Source: Acidimicrobiaceae bacterium
Lineage (GTDB): Bacteria > Actinomycetota > Acidimicrobiia > Acidimicrobiales > Aldehydirespiratoraceae
Reading direction: 5' to 3'
Length of the DNA stretch: 64,000 nt
Assembly: GCA_028820455.1 (NCBI GenBank)
Contig: JAPPJC010000006.1
Coordinates: forward strand, 34,682-98,681
How positions within the stretch are numbered: the first letter of the stretch is position 1; the number at the start of each line of letters is the position of its first letter. Shown here in pieces: positions 13,160 to 22,574 of the stretch. Made by a program: the position numbers and the translations under genes. The notes below the pieces were generated by a model. The model was given only the letters and a program-made list of their open reading frames with translations, searched no databases and was not told the origin of the DNA.

Positions 13160-13621
13160 ATGGAGTCTGTGCTAATGGATCCCACAATCACCGCCACCGT
13201 CATGGGTGTAATGATGACAGTGACGTTCGGTGCGTTCATGTTCACTATCCGCTGGCTACGCTCTGATATGCGCGACCTGGGATCCGACATGCGCGACCTG
13301 GGATCCGAAGTCAACGACCGATTCGCAGCAGTCGAAATGCGTATCACCACCGAAGTCGACAAACTGGAAACGAAAGTCGAAACAAGATTCGACAAACTGG
13401 AAACAAGATTCGACACCTTGGGATCAAAACTCGACGGTCTGATCATGGCACTGGCAAACTCCGGCAGCCTAACCTACCCACCAGAAACCACACCCTCACC
13501 GGCCACTCAACCAACATCACCAGAAACTACAGTACAAGCCTCTTCACCAACGTCAAAAGAACCCACACCCTCGCAATCTTCCAATGATGAAACAGCAGAC
13601 CAAACTATCTGCGACGCATGA
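13160..13621 (+). CDS. Small N-terminal-TM coiled-coil protein with P/T/S-rich tail
   Basis: 153 aa with the hydrophobic segment TATVMGVMMTVTFGAFMFTI and the heptad-like stretch RFAAVEMRITTEVDKLETKVETRFDKLETRFDTLGSKLDGL. It contains a perfect-frame 21-bp tandem duplication (13265-13285 / 13286-13306, SDMRDLG x2). Confidence 0.5.
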   Translation: MESVLMDPTITATVMGVMMTVTFGAFMFTIRWLRSDMRDLGSDMRDLGSEVNDRFAAVEMRITTEVDKLETKVETRFDKLETRFDTLGSKLDGLIMALANSGSLTYPPETTPSPATQPTSPETTVQASSPTSKEPTPSQSSNDETADQTICDA

Positions 13622-16824: not shown

Positions 16825-16886
16825 CATGACGTGTAACTTCAATATAAATGATGATATAATACTATTATGCACACTCCAGCCCACCG
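16825..16886 (+). promoter_or_regulatory. Duplicated promoter/operator region, copy 1
   Basis: catgacgtgtaacttcaatataaatgatgatataatactattatgcacactccagcccaccg recurs at 17626-17687 with 1 mismatch. It contains TATAAT and the palindrome ataata-c-tattat overlapping it. Confidence 0.5.
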
Positions 16887-16902
16887 TGTTAGGAAACAAA
16901 CA

Positions 16903-17187
16903 ATGACCACCCACACCGACGAAGACCTCGCTGTAGAAGAAACTGTAGAGGAAATTGAAGCGATGAGCGACGAAGAGTTCTGGGCATGGACAGCCGACCT
17001 CAACCCTGAAGAATACTCACAAGAAGCATGGGAAGAATGTATCGCCGAAGGACAGCGTAAGGCCGCGATCAAAAACCTGAACCCCCCAAGCCACTTCTAC
17101 GACACCCTAGACGAGATGTTCGCCGACATGGAAGCTCGGACAGCAAAACAAAGTTACCTCGTGGAGAATGAGCGTCTCACAGAATAG
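16903..17187 (+). CDS. Acidic small protein, putative antitoxin (copy 1)
   Basis: MTTHTDEDLAVEETVEEIEAMSDEEFWAW...PPSHFYDTLDEMFADMEA. It is a paralogue of 17752-18018. Its stop TAG directly abuts the GTG of the downstream ORF. I prefer ATG 16903 over the track start 16867. Confidence 0.5.
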   Translation: MTTHTDEDLAVEETVEEIEAMSDEEFWAWTADLNPEEYSQEAWEECIAEGQRKAAIKNLNPPSHFYDTLDEMFADMEARTAKQSYLVENERLTE

Positions 17188-17487
17188 GTGCCAACCTACG
17201 ACGTGCTACCCGCCTTCTGGACTGGATTTGACAGGCTGACCCCAGCACAGCAAGCGCGATTCCGCCGAGCGATAACACGATTTGCAATCGAACTTCTCGA
17301 AATTGAACGAGGAGACCGGATGTACCCATCACCTGGGCTCATAAAGAAACTACAGGGCCACCCAGACCTCTGGGAGTTCCGCTGGGCACACAACGGGCGA
17401 GCCACATTCGCGTGGGACACCGCTGTTCGGCCAGACAAGCATCACATCGTCTGGCACCAGATCGGCACACACGGCATCCTGCCCTGA
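17188..17487 (+). CDS. RelE/ParE-fold toxin-like protein (copy 1)
   Basis: 99 aa. GLIKKLQGHPDLWEFRWAHNGRATFAWD...HHIVWHQIGTHGIL resembles the K-L-x-G-x4-W-E-x-R...R-x-x-F...G-x-H core of RelE/ParE toxins (recollection, not searched). Confidence 0.55.
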   Translation: MPTYDVLPAFWTGFDRLTPAQQARFRRAITRFAIELLEIERGDRMYPSPGLIKKLQGHPDLWEFRWAHNGRATFAWDTAVRPDKHHIVWHQIGTHGILP

Positions 17488-17751: not shown

Positions 17752-18018
17752 ATGACTACCCATATCGACAAGCAGATCACTGTAGAGGAAATCGATGCAA
17801 TGAGTGACGAAGAGTTCACAAAATGGATCGAAAGCTGGGCAGCAGACCTCGATCCTGAAGAATACTCACAAGAAGCATGGGAGGAATGCATCGCCGAGGG
17901 ACGACGCAAGGCTGCAATTAAAAACCCGAACCCCCCAAGCCACTTCTACGACACTCTAGACGAGATGTTCGCTGACCTGGAGGCGCATTGCTCAAAACAG
18001 GAGCGTCTTGCAGAGTAG
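17752..18018 (+). CDS. Acidic small protein, putative antitoxin (copy 2)
   Basis: 88 aa and collinear with copy 1 (…EEIDAMSDEEF…DPEEYSQEAWEECIAEGRRKAAIKNPNPPSHFYDTLDEMFADLEA…). Confidence 0.5.
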   Translation: MTTHIDKQITVEEIDAMSDEEFTKWIESWAADLDPEEYSQEAWEECIAEGRRKAAIKNPNPPSHFYDTLDEMFADLEAHCSKQERLAE

Positions 18019-18318
18019 GTGCCAACCTACGACATGTTGCCCGCCTTCCGAGCTGGCTTTGCCAGGCTGACTCCAGCACAGAAGTACCTGTTCCATAAAA
18101 TGTTGCGGAAACTTATAACTGAGCTTCTCGAAATTGAACGAGGAGACCGTGTGCACCCATCACCTGGACTTGTAAAGAAACTGCGGAGCCGTCCGGAGCT
18201 CTGGGAGTTCCGCTGGGCACACGATGGACGTGCCACATTCGCGTGGGACACTGCTGTTCGGCCAGGCAAGCATCACATCGTCTGGCACCGGATCGGCACA
18301 CACGACATCCTGCCTTGA
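18019..18318 (+). CDS. RelE/ParE-fold toxin-like protein (copy 2)
   Basis: 99 aa. By my count it has 27 mismatches in 99 aligned positions versus copy 1. It has the same TAG-GTG junction. Confidence 0.55.
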   Translation: MPTYDMLPAFRAGFARLTPAQKYLFHKMLRKLITELLEIERGDRVHPSPGLVKKLRSRPELWEFRWAHDGRATFAWDTAVRPGKHHIVWHRIGTHDILP

Positions 18319-18321
18319 GAT

Positions 18322-18553
18322 ATGCACAGACGCCGAGCCACGCCGACCAGCAAAACGTTCAATCCCTGGATGATGTAAGTTCATTCAAAAAAGGAGTACG
18401 GGTCTTAGTATTCTGAGTTGGCTTCCCCTTCGGCTACCTGATCTAAATCGGCTTTATATTCGGCTTGGCTTGTTTGAAACGTCCCTCAGTAGCTACATCA
18501 GGATGAGGGGTTATGATTTCACGCCACTCAGTGAGACCAGCATCGGGCTTGCC
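18322..18553 (-). pseudogene. 5' stump of a DUF499-type P-loop ATPase (defence-island family)
   Basis: The minus-strand translation reads GLTEWREIITPHPDVATEGRFKQA / AEYKADLDQVAEGEANSEY*DPYSFFE*TYIIQGLNVLLVGVARRL. This tracks the conserved DUF499 N-terminus as I recall it (PW..v.tP..D...G....eFA..L.qV..G.a..eY.dP.eFF.rTY.T.gL..LL...RRL). There is no start codon. An apparent 5-nt duplication (agccaagcc, 18461-18470) shifts the frame. In-frame stops lie at 18405-18407 and 18381-18383. The homology ends at the toxin-2 stop (18316-18318). Confidence 0.5.
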
Positions 18554-18601
18554 TATAGTAGATTGTCGCTATCCGTCTATGCTCCGTGCGAGGGACTGTG
18601 C

Positions 18602-19753
18602 TCATTGAATAATTTCGCTCATCAGATCATAACGCAGACCATGTATCTGGGTACGCTGTTCACTGTTACCAAAAGCTTCCAATAGTCGTTCCATCGAATC
18701 GAGGGCCCGTATAGTGTCATCGCTGCTGAACGTATCCATCGGATGAGCCCAACGATTGCGAGCATCTTTGATCTCGAATACCAGTGAACGCACCGAGGCT
18801 ATTGTCGGGAGGCTGTCAGGCAGGGGATTGCATGCATCTTTGACCTTGAAGACACATGGACGTTCCGACGAGTCGAACTGATCTTCGAATACTTCATCCC
18901 AAGTAGCGATAATACTTTGGAGCAACCAAGCCGGATCATTGATGGATGGCTGACGGGATGGCTGGCGAAGCTTGCCATTGACAGTCTGAAGCCAACCTTT
19001 GTCGTAGTGTGTCTCCCAAATATCCTTACATGTCGGACCCAGCCCATCACTGAGCAAGCGCAACGCTTTTCGCAGTCGTTCGCTGTTATCCATCTCCGCT
19101 GCATCTTCTTCATGTGAATCGTCTGAATTTTGCCCTTGTTCTTTTGAGGAGGTGTCCTCTGAAAAGCTGTCTGTGTTGTTTTCCGATGGATCAGGCTCGC
19201 TGCTGTTAGAGGTTTTTGGTTTAACGTTCCGTCTTTCGGAACCGCGAATCCGGCGAAACAGGCAGAAACTCACAAAACAACCCACAATTAGTGCGGCTAG
19301 TAGTATTAAGACAAAAATCAGTTGATTTGGTTGGTTCTTCAGCTTGTGCAACTGGTCTTCAATACTGAATAACTGTTCCTGCAGCTGGTCTTCTACGTTG
19401 TCCAACCGTTCTTGTAATCGACCCTCAGAATGATCTACATGTTCCTCCAGCCGCAGCTCCAGCCGATCCAACTGCCCGCCCATCGCGTTTGATTCGTTTG
19501 AACCGCTGGCCATGGGCGTATTAGCGGCCTCATCGTTATCGCTGGAAGCATCCGGATCCTTTGAGCTGTCTGCGTTGAGCGTGGCGTCCAAGCTGTTAGC
19601 CTGCTCATCAGTTGTTTTTGTGGTATTTGTAGGTGCGTCAGTAGTGTTTGTGGTATCTGAGCTGCTTGAACCACAACCAAAACCCAATCCAACCAACAAA
19701 AAGACCAGCAGTATCTTGAGTGTTGCTTTCAATCGTCTTTCCCTTGCTTTCAA
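18602..19753 (-). CDS. Membrane-anchored coiled-coil protein with C-terminal Swt1-like HEPN domain
   Basis: 383 aa. The N-terminus MKARERRLKATLKILLVFLLVGLGFGCGSS is signal or lipobox-like. A D/S/T/N-rich region and a coiled coil (LDRLELRLEEHVDHSEGRLQERLDNVEDQLQEQLFSIEDQLHKL) follow. A TM helix LIFVLILLAALIVGCFVSFCLF is followed by RRIRGSERR. The C-terminal domain reads DPAWLLQSIIATWDEVF...VFEIKDARNRWAHPMD...IRALDSMERLL, with an R-x4-H HEPN motif. The start lies 3 nt after the MTase stop. Confidence 0.7.
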   Translation of the reverse strand: MKARERRLKATLKILLVFLLVGLGFGCGSSSSDTTNTTDAPTNTTKTTDEQANSLDATLNADSSKDPDASSDNDEAANTPMASGSNESNAMGGQLDRLELRLEEHVDHSEGRLQERLDNVEDQLQEQLFSIEDQLHKLKNQPNQLIFVLILLAALIVGCFVSFCLFRRIRGSERRNVKPKTSNSSEPDPSENNTDSFSEDTSSKEQGQNSDDSHEEDAAEMDNSERLRKALRLLSDGLGPTCKDIWETHYDKGWLQTVNGKLRQPSRQPSINDPAWLLQSIIATWDEVFEDQFDSSERPCVFKVKDACNPLPDSLPTIASVRSLVFEIKDARNRWAHPMDTFSSDDTIRALDSMERLLEAFGNSEQRTQIHGLRYDLMSEIIQ

Positions 19754-19756
19754 ATG

Positions 19757-21361
19757 TTAACGCTCATCTGAACATTCCCCGCTAGCGAAACTTTTCAGAA
19801 GTGCGATGTCGACGGGGGAGCGCATCACGATAACCTCTCTAACCGGCTTGTTAGGGCCGGTGAGGGCTTTGAGCGCACGATAGCCGGAACTGTTGACCGT
19901 TGGACGGTTGGTTGTGAGAAGCACCAGGCGGGTATTCTCCAGCCCCGCAGAATGGATCACAGCGGCTTTACCTAAAGCTTTCCAGAGAGTATCGGTGCGA
20001 CGCAACCCTGGACGCTGAGTCACACTGAAAGCCCCCGACACATCAAACAGCCATTTTCCGCCCTGCTGGTCGAAAGCCTCAAAATTGACCTGAGCACCAC
20101 ACACTCGGGCAACATTGTCGTTGATGCTACTAAAACCGCAGCTAAGCAAAACAACCCTAGCCATCTCCCGAGCCTTGCGACCCTCACGGCCTGCCCTTGC
20201 CTGAAAATTGTAATTGACGACCTCCTTGGCAGAAGCAGCTGTACTATTCCCGGCACTACCGGACCCTGCACTATTATCCCCTGTGTTATCCCCCACACCG
20301 GTAGCATTGTCGAGTTCAAAGCTTTGCTGTCTGGAAGGGCCCACAGCAACCGGCCAGCTCAACTCACCTATCTTCTCGTTACGCTGTTTTTCTAGCTTGG
20401 CAAGCCGCTTCCGCTCTTCAGCAACCCGCTGTTCAGCCAAATCAATATACGTCTTGTCAATGTCAAAACCCACGTAATACCGGCCAGTACGTACCGCTGC
20501 GACCGCTGTTGTGCCCGCCCCCATGAACGGGTCGAGCACTAAATCACCCTTATAGGTGTAAAGCTCAATCAAACGTTTCGGTAACTCCACCGGAAAAGGA
20601 GCGGGATGGCCTACACGAGTGGCTGACGCTGGAGGAATATCCCAAACATCGGTAGTGGCTTCCATGAACTCGTCCACGTGGACCGTGCCTATAGAAGGCA
20701 GTTGTCTTTTGGCACGTTCAGCAGCAGACAACGCACGATCGAACCTCCCCTTGGACGCAATGATGATCCGCTCGGTGACATCCCGCAGTACCGGATTGCC
20801 AGGTCGCTGGAAACTACCCCAAGCGCAGCTACCAGCAGCACCCTGAGCTTTACGCCAAATCACCTCACCACGCAGCAACAACTGTAAACGGTTTTGCAAT
20901 ATTTCTATGACATCCGCTGAAAGCGAACGATACGGACGCCTGCCAAGATTAGCGACATTCACAGCGATACGCCCGCCCGGTTCTAGTTTACGCACACACT
21001 CTGCCAGCACGTCCTCGAGCATCCTCAGATAGGCAATGTAATCAGCAGGCACATCGCCTTGCCCCATAGCCAGCTCATATTCCTTACCCACAAAATACGG
21101 TGGTGAAGTCACCACCAGGGCCACCGAATCGTCTGCCACATTATCATCATCCATGTCACGCGCATCACCGACCCAGAGACGATCAACACACGCATGAGGC
21201 ATGATCTCATCTTGATCGCTGATCTCAGGCAACGGAAACCGGTCGTAAAACTCCGAAGCATCATGGCCTTCACGGCGACCCACCCCAAACCTTGAAGTAG
21301 ACGTGCCTCGCCTCCGCCTGGCCGTCGGGCTCTGTCTAGATTGAGAGGCTGACATACTCAA
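19757..21361 (-). CDS. Beta-class N4/N6 DNA methyltransferase (N6_N4_Mtase family) with extra ~190-aa C-terminal domain
   Basis: Motif IV VVTSPPYFVGKEYE precedes motif I DPFMGAGTTAVAAVRTGRYYVGFDID. After a G/S/N-rich linker comes an unassigned domain (…VNFEAFDQQGGKWLFDVSGAFSVTQRPGLRRTDTLWKALGKAAV…LVLLTTNRP…). Confidence 0.9.
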   Translation of the reverse strand: MSMSASQSRQSPTARRRRGTSTSRFGVGRREGHDASEFYDRFPLPEISDQDEIMPHACVDRLWVGDARDMDDDNVADDSVALVVTSPPYFVGKEYELAMGQGDVPADYIAYLRMLEDVLAECVRKLEPGGRIAVNVANLGRRPYRSLSADVIEILQNRLQLLLRGEVIWRKAQGAAGSCAWGSFQRPGNPVLRDVTERIIIASKGRFDRALSAAERAKRQLPSIGTVHVDEFMEATTDVWDIPPASATRVGHPAPFPVELPKRLIELYTYKGDLVLDPFMGAGTTAVAAVRTGRYYVGFDIDKTYIDLAEQRVAEERKRLAKLEKQRNEKIGELSWPVAVGPSRQQSFELDNATGVGDNTGDNSAGSGSAGNSTAASAKEVVNYNFQARAGREGRKAREMARVVLLSCGFSSINDNVARVCGAQVNFEAFDQQGGKWLFDVSGAFSVTQRPGLRRTDTLWKALGKAAVIHSAGLENTRLVLLTTNRPTVNSSGYRALKALTGPNKPVREVIVMRSPVDIALLKSFASGECSDER

Positions 21362-21499: not shown

Positions 21500-22309
21500 C
21501 TAGCCGAATCTCGGTGCACTCACGACCGCAGACACCCTGGCACACTCTCTGGCGCGGGAATCCGCGCGATCCAACAGCATCTCGACGATCTCGTTGCCAG
21601 AGAATTCTGCTGGGATAGACTCAGCTGCTCGGCCCAGCGCATCGGGCACTTGCGAAGCAATCTCCTCAGCCCTGGAAACAGTTTCTTCCCCATCAAGGCC
21701 GAGGGCTTCTCCTGTGTTGAACCAGGCAGACTTCCGGTCGCTCTTTCGCAGCGTGTAGTCCCTGCCGATCTTCATGGCTCATCCCCCCCAGGGAAGCCCT
21801 CAACGGTCATTTTAGAACTGGAGAGCGGTCTTCGCTTGGGCTCCTACCAGAGAGAATTGCCCAAAAGTTCGTCCTCCTAGCCAAGTTGAGTTGGCTAAGG
21901 TAAGCGAAGAAACGAGCGAGGCTAGGTCTCGGTCATCAAGCCATTCGACCCCTCCTCCGCGGTCAGCTACCGTGGCCACTCGGTGAGGAAAACAAAACTG
22001 GACCGCACCAGCGCAGTCCATTCCCATCGGAGTGGCGAGCAAATCAAACGACGACCTCCCCTTGACTCCGAATAGGCGACGTTGCTGTTCAACTACCTGA
22101 GGGTTGTCGGGCAATAGGCCTTCCATCCAAGCAGAGAGCCTCAGCAGCGGGAATCTTCTGCCGGTCTTAGGCATTCCAATCGATAGCGGTGCTCCCCTGC
22201 TGACAAGATACTCCTCGGTGTACACAAGCCCCGAGCGGTCATCAGAGCGCGAGGCATCAGCAGCGTGTTGGCATCCAATCAGTACACTGAGTGTTTCAAC
22301 CGCTGGCAT
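21500..22309 (-). pseudogene. hipA: hipA-family kinase toxin with the kinase core deleted
   Basis: The 165-aa N-terminal piece carries HipA N-domain motifs (LLPDNPQVVEQQRRLFG, GMDCAGAVQF, SLVGAQAKTAL). The 91-aa piece matches the HipA C-terminal tail. The two are separated by only 36 nt containing three stops and a C7 run (21783-21789). About 150-180 aa of catalytic core is absent. Confidence 0.7.
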
Positions 22310-22574
22310 CGGAGTTCCTCGAGTGGGGGATCATCGATAGTATGTCCACAGGCTCGTCTGAGACACTGAGCGAGTAGCCGAGTGAACGCAAAACTCGAAA
22401 GACCAGTCCGATCTCGGCGGTGGCCTTCCCGTTTTCAGCCTCGGACAACCACGGAGCTGACACGCCCGCCTTTTCCGCCAGGTTTTTTTGTGTGAGGCCC
22501 TGTTCTTTGCGAAGGTGTCGTATTGCTTGCCCCAGCTGACCTGGATGTACCATCTGCTTCATAATAACTTCCAT
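22296..22574 (-). CDS. hipB: XRE-family HTH antitoxin (HipB-like)
   Basis: LGQAIRHLRKEQGLTQKNLAEKAGVSAPWLSEAENGKATAEIGLVFRVLRSLG is a classic Cro/C1 HTH. It overlaps the hipA start by 14 nt. Confidence 0.75.
   Translation of the reverse strand: MEVIMKQMVHPGQLGQAIRHLRKEQGLTQKNLAEKAGVSAPWLSEAENGKATAEIGLVFRVLRSLGYSLSVSDEPVDILSMIPHSRNSDASG

Follow-up and report, generated by a model that had tools for sequence, protein, structure and literature searches.

A HEPN reading frame with a predicted membrane anchor beside a DNA methylase gene is probably the head of a decayed hmaC gene

We analysed a 64-kb stretch of an Acidimicrobiaceae metagenome-assembled genome (MAG), hereafter the window, in which a DNA methyltransferase (MTase) gene is directly followed by an open reading frame (ORF) that joins a predicted membrane anchor to a Swt1-type HEPN domain. 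An earlier interpretation made from the sequence alone (the sequence-only reading) had taken the two genes for a candidate defence module. We consider it quite likely that the HEPN ORF is instead the head of an hmaC gene with a one-off membrane anchor, lying beside a widespread methylase, and that there is no dedicated two-gene system. The methylase-HEPN pair is not a new defence system, as the HEPN domain comes from the known Hma/BREX-related family and the pairing is not conserved. All positions are those of the window, and features lie on the minus strand unless stated otherwise.

The maximal HEPN ORF (18602..19753, 383 aa) ends in a Swt1-type HEPN domain at residues 221-383 (18605..19093). 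PF18731 (HEPN_Swt1) matches it with E=1.5e-20 and 74 bits, compared with a cut-off of 27.5, and the match is split by a 23-aa insertion. In the AlphaFold2 (AF2) model the domain is confident at residues 223-382, with a predicted local distance difference test score (pLDDT) above 90. The putative catalytic motif ARNRWAH (R-x4-H, residues 331-337, 18743..18763) is present, its R, N, W, A and H do not vary among 13 homologues, and all family-invariant residues are kept in the window. This part of the sequence-only reading is therefore correct. The nearest homologues have ~50-60% protein identity, and all homologues match only the last 163 residues of the ORF. All of them begin with the HEPN domain (M..N.ER.AKALDLLRDGLGP), their N-termini align with the internal Met221, and DUF499 follows the HEPN domain in several. 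The domain in the window begins at the ancestral hmaC ATG at 19093. The insertion (18797..18865) is a gap in the alignment of all nine homologues and originates from a diverged 72-nt tandem duplication, visible as a direct repeat (18754-18796 / 18826-18868) with 74% identity. In the model, the inserted residues (295-317, pLDDT 50-66) form a loop ahead of the catalytic helix.

HEPN-DUF499 ATPases were described in 2013 as the 'Ava_2192' family of Swt1-like HEPN proteins by Anantharaman et al. (PMC3710099), and the name HmaC was given in 2021 (PMC8565338). The Hma system consists of the helicase HmaA, the DUF1156 methylase HmaB and the DUF499 ATPase HmaC; it is also classified as type-1 BREX-related (BR), and the HEPN-fused form was found in 1370 taxa in a survey of these systems (PMC12839542). 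In the intact relatives of the window gene, the HEPN-DUF499 protein is HmaC (PADLOC E=5e-283) and its neighbours are HmaB (E=0). Using the intact HmaC proteins of loci L001 and L017 as tblastn queries, we obtained matches in the window from 19093 to 18464 in frame -1, and then from 18485 to 18312 in frame -3. The homology spans HmaC residues 3 to ~234 and ends before Walker A (GGGKTHS). By this collinear homology, the HEPN domain and the DUF499 stump behind it are one decayed hmaC gene. The sequence-only reading had seen the stump as a remnant of a larger module, which the tblastn matches bear out, but it had treated the HEPN protein as a separate entity, which they do not. The PADLOC HmaC model has no match at the window locus, and PADLOC gave no meaningful match for the HEPN ORF, since the sequence covered by that model begins behind the HEPN head.

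The pseudogene stump, located from the tblastn matches and the translations, covers 18312..18601 and corresponds to HmaC residues ~163-234. The 72 HmaC residue-equivalents that remain after the HEPN domain carry four stop codons (TGA 18602-18604, TAG 18569-18571, TAA 18405-18407 and TGA 18381-18383) and one frameshift, a 5-nt insertion near 18466. At ~18312 the homology abuts two tandem toxin-antitoxin (TA)-like cassettes, which end at 18318. No remnant of hmaB (DUF1156) was found with three DUF1156 proteins as tblastn queries; these searches and those with HmaC covered the complete window. Between pepN and ribF there is no large helicase-like ORF, although no hmaA helicase query was run on the window. 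Since hmaC is cut before Walker A and no hmaB remnant was found, the parent Hma system is very probably defunct here.

Separation of a HEPN head from its decaying hmaC gene has happened repeatedly: an open head followed by a fragmented DUF499 is also found in at least three other, independent samples. ORFs of 140-162 aa with HEPN only, then a fragmented DUF499, are seen in L087 (8001-11251), L088 and L089 (P0138), and also for P0139 and P0140. Another arrangement is a stand-alone Swt1 HEPN with a novel C-terminal module (L001 10001-10804, P0007; also P0008-P0011). In P0007-P0009 this module is formed by two ~45-aa repeats (FEWNPKWAKVD..YNYVKACVEQAAARLHE), while P0010-P0011 have a different one, and P0007 is located 2 kb from an intact hmaB-hmaC pair.

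The first 220 residues of the HEPN ORF (19094..19753) form an orphan extension that is unique to the source MAG. In order, it consists of a signal/lipobox region, a disordered S/T/D/N-rich stretch, a long helix, a transmembrane helix and an acidic linker. According to hydropathy and pattern matching, residues 1-27 (19673..19753) comprise a basic N-terminus, a hydrophobic segment and a lipobox-like LGFGC; the hydrophobic segment, at ~13-27 in the Kyte-Doolittle profile, has a PROSITE-type lipobox match, VFLLVGLGFGC, at its end. The long helix (residues 89-139, 19337..19489, AF2 pLDDT 79-93) is a putative coiled coil. The predicted transmembrane helix (residues 145-166, 19256..19321), with a 19-residue Kyte-Doolittle (KD19) maximum of 3.07, is followed by RRIRGSERRNVKPK. 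The AF2 model has helices at residues 2-24, 89-139 and 142-175, with disorder between them. The topology proposed in the sequence-only reading agrees with the two hydrophobic segments and the modelled helices. It is not as unusual as was thought, since an external helical domain, a transmembrane helix and a cytoplasmic Swt1/Abi2 HEPN domain were described together in 2013, in proteins of unrelated sequence (PMC3710099).

When residues 1-220 were scanned with HMMER against the full set of 1.84 billion representative proteins, no homologue was returned (only the protein itself), and a word-indexed protein search gave none either. With tblastn, tblastx and blastn there was no match in 86 loci or in the remainder of the window. 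Because low-complexity sequence at the N-terminus could have dominated the first search, we repeated it with a HEPN-only query, and no membrane-anchored relative came up. We also considered the 3' end of hmaB, the small post-methylase ORF of L004/L008-type loci and other genes of the loci as the source of the extension, and none of them matched. The extension nevertheless looks like coding sequence. Its codon-usage log-likelihood ratio, trained on the long genes of the window, is +0.145 per codon in frame, on par with the HEPN domain (+0.151), and all five alternative frames give negative values. On the coding strand the orphan segment is A-rich and its composition differs from the surroundings: the plus-strand AT skew is -0.147 at window positions 19001-20000, compared with +0.06 to +0.27 in most flanking kilobases.

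In related loci, the junction between the methylase and hmaC contains 85-231 nt, a P-loop/ATPase-like gene, a Phd/RelE-like pair or remnants of small ORFs. The junction of L010 (10486-12045) has an open frame of ~427 codons with the P-loop GARQSGKST, that of L033 (2458-3400) has two ORFs that look by eye like a Phd/RelE-type pair, and those of L014, L015 and L021 have decayed remnants of the small post-methylase ORF of L004-type loci. From these varied contents it follows that the junction accepts insertions. It is an insertion hot spot, and the 660-nt segment of the window is another such piece, by chance in frame with the HEPN domain.

The maximal methylase and HEPN ORFs are separated by 3 nt, as the sequence-only reading had it. 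The HEPN ORF more likely starts at TTG 19732, which has a Shine-Dalgarno-like AAGGGA upstream and gives a protein of 376 aa (NCBI MDE0267570.1); with the probable starts the gap is 24 nt. Nothing in this gap resembles a terminator, and a weak terminator-like site lies inside the HEPN ORF (19296-19282). The counts of the promoter and terminator scan are not above the shuffled expectation, and the scan is used here for the intergenic gap only. Given the terminator-free 24-nt gap, the Shine-Dalgarno-like site and the coding-like codon usage, the HEPN ORF is probably co-transcribed with the methylase and translated. An assembly record in ENA (L086) is 100% identical to the window over 9131 nt; it may share the reads of the source sample and counters an assembler artefact only.

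Does the HEPN ORF still work? Synonymous sites are saturated at ~50-60% protein identity, and lesion density was therefore used instead of dN/dS. The 383 codons of the HEPN ORF contain no lesion, compared with five in the next 92 codons. If the four further lesions were placed at random, they would all land in the stump with a probability of 0.0014, or of 0.017 when the HEPN domain alone is set against the stump. The retained invariant residues, the confident model of the domain, the open HEPN heads in other samples and the HEPN heads with other C-terminal modules near intact hmaB-hmaC pairs also speak for a retained function. On balance we lean towards a product that is a relic still unerased, while a selectable function, as a stand-alone toxin or an abortive-infection-type RNase, has a somewhat less than even chance.

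The strictest form of this is that the HEPN ORF is dead, its extension never made or a functionless peptide, and that only the methylase matters. Such an outcome is a serious candidate, if one that falls a little short of even. The former gene has its four stops and frameshift directly after the HEPN ORF, and the stump residues are well conserved, suggesting a recent decay that has yet to reach the head. In addition, the ORF is a singleton, about half the length of its low-complexity extension is predicted to be disordered, the HEPN domain carries an insertion derived from a duplication, and the neighbouring hipA is truncated as well. However, 383 stop-free codons are very unlikely in non-coding DNA, the chance for the 220 codons of the extension alone being ~6e-6 to 3e-5, and the in-frame codon-usage signal of the extension equals that of the HEPN domain. 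The concentration of lesions in the stump (p=0.0014-0.017) and the intact HEPN heads next to fragmented ATPases in other genomes also speak against a dead ORF.

At the other end, the HEPN head may have been captured by an orphan, possibly de novo, lipoprotein/transmembrane module and selected as a membrane-tethered, stand-alone RNase that is co-expressed with the methylase. We think this unlikely. If true, it would be a fresh case of a defence effector domain recovered from a system in decay and redirected to the envelope.

The methylase ORF is 19757..21361 at its maximum (534 aa) and probably 19757..21355 (532 aa). ATG 21355 is the more likely start because a conserved N-terminal STS.FGVGRRE lies upstream of the GTG start annotated by NCBI (MDE0267571.1). 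The exact 532-aa product is present in ENA/Logan, and the NCBI host of both proteins is an Acidimicrobiaceae MAG. PF01555 matches residues 80-310 (20432..21124) with E=8.5e-40 and 137.5 bits, compared with a cut-off of 26.7, and the best PADLOC score, for MTase_II, is 1.9e-85. Motif IV, TSPPY (residues 85-89, 21095-21109), is N-terminal to motif I, FMGAGTT (residues 279-285, 20507-20527), which is the beta-class N4/N6 order recognised in the sequence-only reading. The enzyme is an SPPY beta-class methylase with probable N4-cytosine specificity, an assignment drawn from similarity to 2zie and 8s9m and from the motif, which is typical of N4-cytosine enzymes but not decisive. The gene is intact, and 220 of the 225 columns that are at least 95% conserved among 78 homologues are kept.

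The MTase domain is followed by a low-complexity G/S/N/T linker (residues ~345-385, 20207..20329), which is unconserved among homologues and has low pLDDT, and by a conserved C-terminal domain (residues 386-534, 19760..20206) delimited by the homologues and the AF2 model. The sequence-only reading had noticed this extra domain behind the linker, but its size is ~150 aa and not 190. The C-terminal ~150 residues have 288 detectable homologues and no Pfam annotation; profile searches of Pfam, NCBIfam and PDB matched the MTase part only and gave no sequence-level match for the C-terminal domain. The AF2 model of the domain (pLDDT 85.5) has the topology alpha-beta-beta-beta-alpha-beta-alpha-beta-alpha, and the top PDB matches in Foldseek are NucS/EndoMS, SfsA, XisH, Card1, PspGI, BstEII and EcoO109I, with weak scores (best E 1.6e-3, TM-score 0.43). 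The domain models as a restriction-endonuclease-like PD-(D/E)xK fold. D431, R450, R455 and K461 are invariant, and N426, D440 and S442 are also conserved. Catalysis is uncertain because N426...D440-x-S442 stands in place of D...(D/E)-x-K, and the domain may be an inactive or non-canonical nuclease derivative. The lack of a restriction endonuclease partner, as first reported, is correct in that the ORF list and the profile search show no separate endonuclease gene adjoining the methylase; the methylase itself, however, carries a domain modelled with such a fold.

In some loci a ~230-aa derivative is formed by the nuclease-like domain and a degenerate MTase tail (L005 8001-8693, P0035 type; also P0026-P0050). 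It adjoins ligA and is conserved across many contigs. This derivative suggests a role of the C-terminal domain that does not depend on methylation.

In a scan of species-representative genomes, at least 574 stretches encode a relative of the methylase, and 79 of these loci were fetched (L007-L085). All 79 are from Acidimicrobiales/Acidimicrobiia MAGs or unclassified bacterial MAGs, many with sponge-symbiont names. PF01555 and the C-terminal domain (together MTase-CTD) are fused in every one of them (79/79). The methylase lies between ligA and a PASTA kinase (pknB-like)/gatCAB in 23 of the 79 loci and in an ABC-transporter context in 27, and some genomes have two copies of the family. Hma-type genes (HEPN, DUF499, DUF1156) are present within 10 kb in 14 of the 79 loci and absent in the other 65. 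The family resembles a housekeeping or repair-linked enzyme of the whole lineage more than a mobile restriction-modification gene.

In nine of the 79 loci the methylase is directly upstream of an intact hmaC. The hmaC start is 85-231 nt past the methylase stop in seven of these, and a small cassette occupies the junction in two more. The adjoining HmaC is full-length (1086-1088 aa), and hmaB is in the same locus or at most ~7 kb upstream. In L017 the MTase-CTD gene is preceded by hmaB and followed by hmaC; in L023 it shares the interval between hmaB and hmaC with a Dcm/HATPase/response-regulator/HNH set. These nine loci offer the simplest explanation of the adjacency in the window. The closest relatives of the window HEPN domain are of the Hma-embedded type (MVMANTER...), and it is plausible that the adjacency was inherited from such an arrangement. 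A strongly conserved leader (GGTTCGTGGCATTGTATGGGGCGTGAATCCAACGATTCCGGCTGACGAACGGAGACGCCC-ATG) is located ~90 nt upstream of hmaC in L014, L015, L017, L020, L021, L023 and L024. It is present wherever MTase-CTD is inserted upstream of hmaC, and absent from the window. Possible identities of the GGTTCGTGGCATTGTATGGGGCGTGAATCCAACGATTCCGGCTGACGAACGGAGACGCCC leader are a promoter, a regulatory RNA and a remnant of the 3' end of hmaB.

The distribution bears on the proposal that the methylase marks self DNA or senses infection while the anchored HEPN protein is an envelope-sensing suicide RNase. Neither HEPN nor any Hma gene lies within 10 kb in 65 of the 79 methylase loci, and where a HEPN domain adjoins the methylase elsewhere it is part of a full 1086-1088-aa HmaC with hmaB nearby. 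The two-gene architecture does not co-occur in other genomes, as the membrane-HEPN form was seen once only, its extension has no homologue, and the HEPN domain in the window is visibly the head of a pseudogene. We know of no HEPN system that is regulated by a PF01555 methylase. Set against this are the tight same-strand linkage with no terminator-like site in the gap, the lesion-free HEPN ORF with its R-x4-H, and the order methylase then HEPN(-DUF499) in nine of the 79 loci. Membrane HEPN proteins with external domains have also been proposed as stimulus-dependent RNases (PMC3710099). All in all, we regard a functional two-gene module as improbable, and none of the observations speaks for envelope sensing or for the methylase as a self-marker or sensor for the HEPN protein.

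We give no better prospects to a cooperating module, in which the MTase-nuclease-like protein of the Hma-embedded lineage serves a helicase-less hmaB-hmaC pair, for example as its nuclease, and the window keeps a reduced version of that cooperation. The idea draws on L001 (2090-8165), L017 and L023, where neither a large helicase-like ORF nor a helicase-like Pfam call is found beside hmaB-hmaC, with no helicase query run. L017 has MTase-CTD between hmaB and hmaC, with the conserved ~90-nt leader before hmaC. PD-(D/E)xK nucleases, moreover, are reported within BREX-related loci that have no helicase-nuclease fusion (PMC12839542). However, most members of the methylase family are far from Hma genes, the canonical nuclease residues are not evident in the C-terminal domain, and both hmaB and the HmaC ATPase are absent from the window. 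The junction also takes unrelated cassettes, as it would if the methylase were passively embedded.

According to the relic explanation that we favour, the HEPN ORF is the N-terminal head of a former hmaC, a HEPN-DUF499 AAA+ ATPase gene that is a pseudogene past the HEPN domain. The 660-nt orphan segment, which extends from the stop codon of the methylase to the former start of hmaC, is now in frame with the HEPN domain. It would add a lipobox signal, a disordered stretch, a helix of ~50 residues, a transmembrane segment and an acidic linker; the HEPN domain would then lie at the membrane on its cytoplasmic side. If expressed, the ORF would yield a membrane-tethered RNase domain without its ATPase regulator. 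The methylase would be the working part and would methylate the host DNA without a partner, while a role in DNA binding or cleavage may fall to its nuclease-like domain.

Several observations weigh against parts of this account. The lesion-distribution test is post hoc and uses five events. The stump keeps most of its conserved residues, and the inactivation may be recent, with the HEPN ORF simply unhit. The insertion derived from the duplication adjoins the catalytic helix of the HEPN domain. The codon-usage support for the extension is modest, 0.145 compared with 0.258 +/- 0.075 for host genes. The window methylase was also tried as a member of the Hma-embedded clade, and in a neighbour-joining tree it falls outside that clade on a long separate branch, which leaves common descent of the adjacency plausible and no more. 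Finally, the nuclease-like assignment comes from an AF2 model and weak Foldseek E-values, and the canonical D...(D/E)xK is not evident, the conserved strand residues being N426...D440-x-S442.

Between ribF and pepN lies a degenerate piece of a defence island, in a MAG that is probably sponge-associated. The two tandem paralogous two-gene cassettes that abut the end of the hmaC homology are on the plus strand (16867..17487 and 17752..18318). They encode proteins of 106/99 aa and 88/99 aa, have 74-79% nucleotide identity to each other, and gave a sub-threshold Gp49/HigB-like hit as the only family match. They look like a duplicated TA pair that marks the truncation point of hmaC. Upstream of the methylase, a hipB-like helix-turn-helix gene (HTH_3) and a truncated hipA overlap (21812..22574, minus strand). 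The hipA product has 165 aa and contains only the N-terminal coupling domain (Couple_hipA), without the kinase domain. The 91-aa ORF that follows hipA (21500-21775, minus strand) has no match in Pfam, NCBIfam or PDB, and these databases gave no support for it as a C-terminal remnant of hipA. The stretch 21500-22574 is probably another decayed TA locus, that is, further decay within the island. A 153-aa ORF on the plus strand (13160-13621) has a transmembrane segment at its N-terminus, a helical stretch rich in repeats (DMRDLGSDMRDLGSE..., DKLETKVETRFDKLETRFD) and a tail rich in P, T and S. It has no family match and is similar to the orphan N-terminus of the HEPN ORF in style, not in sequence.

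The locus is a snapshot of the decay of a multi-gene defence system, in which the effector head is open while the ATPase gathers stops, and in the window this head has gained a new membrane anchor. The methylase, as an unusually conserved fusion of an MTase with a nuclease fold, may merit more attention than the HEPN protein.

Among solved structures, TTHA0409 of Thermus thermophilus (2zie, 3.1e-35) is the best match to the MTase domain, with the TSPPY aligned. The window methylase has in common with the solved SPPY methylases (2zie, 8s9m and M.PvuII, 1boo) a full-length PF01555 match and a motif IV that precedes motif I, whereas they do not have its ~40-residue linker and ~150-residue C-terminal domain. 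This domain in turn shares the alpha-beta-beta-beta-alpha-beta topology with PD-(D/E)xK nucleases (NucS/EndoMS, SfsA, XisH, type II restriction endonucleases); it differs from them in having N426...D440-x-S442 and in the lack of a sequence-level match.

The membrane-associated Abi2/Swt1 HEPN group combines an external all-alpha domain, a single transmembrane helix and a cytoplasmic HEPN domain (PMC3710099, section 15). The window protein has the same predicted layout, with an extracytoplasmic helix, a transmembrane segment, basic residues and an R-x4-H HEPN domain. In the published group the transmembrane helix and the external domain are well conserved, while the N-terminus in the window has no homologue at all. 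Judged by its homology, the window HEPN ORF is a look-alike and not a member of this group, and its HEPN domain derives from hmaC.

Embedded genes are reported in 62.7% of Hma systems in the 'guilt by embedding' study (bioRxiv 10.1101/2024.01.29.577857). MTase-CTD behaves like such a gene in nine loci, where it is inside or against hmaB...hmaC and immediately upstream of hmaC, and the same gaps are filled by the Dcm/HATPase/response-regulator/HNH set, the TA pair and the ATPase. It is not among the HEC candidates named in the consulted text of that study, and its family is mostly part of the core genome and not of defence islands. The canonical Hma system has three genes including a helicase, whereas the hmaB-hmaC pairs of L001, L017 and L023 show none adjacent, with no helicase query run. 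Compared with Hma, the window keeps the head only: the ATPase from Walker A onwards is absent, no HmaB remnant was found and the helicase was not searched for. In HmaC the HEPN domain is at the very N-terminus, while in the window it is preceded by the 220-residue orphan membrane module. What the window has in common with HmaC is the HEPN domain and the stump, homologous in the same order to residues 3-234 of the intact HEPN-DUF499 protein, with R-N-x-W-A-H kept.

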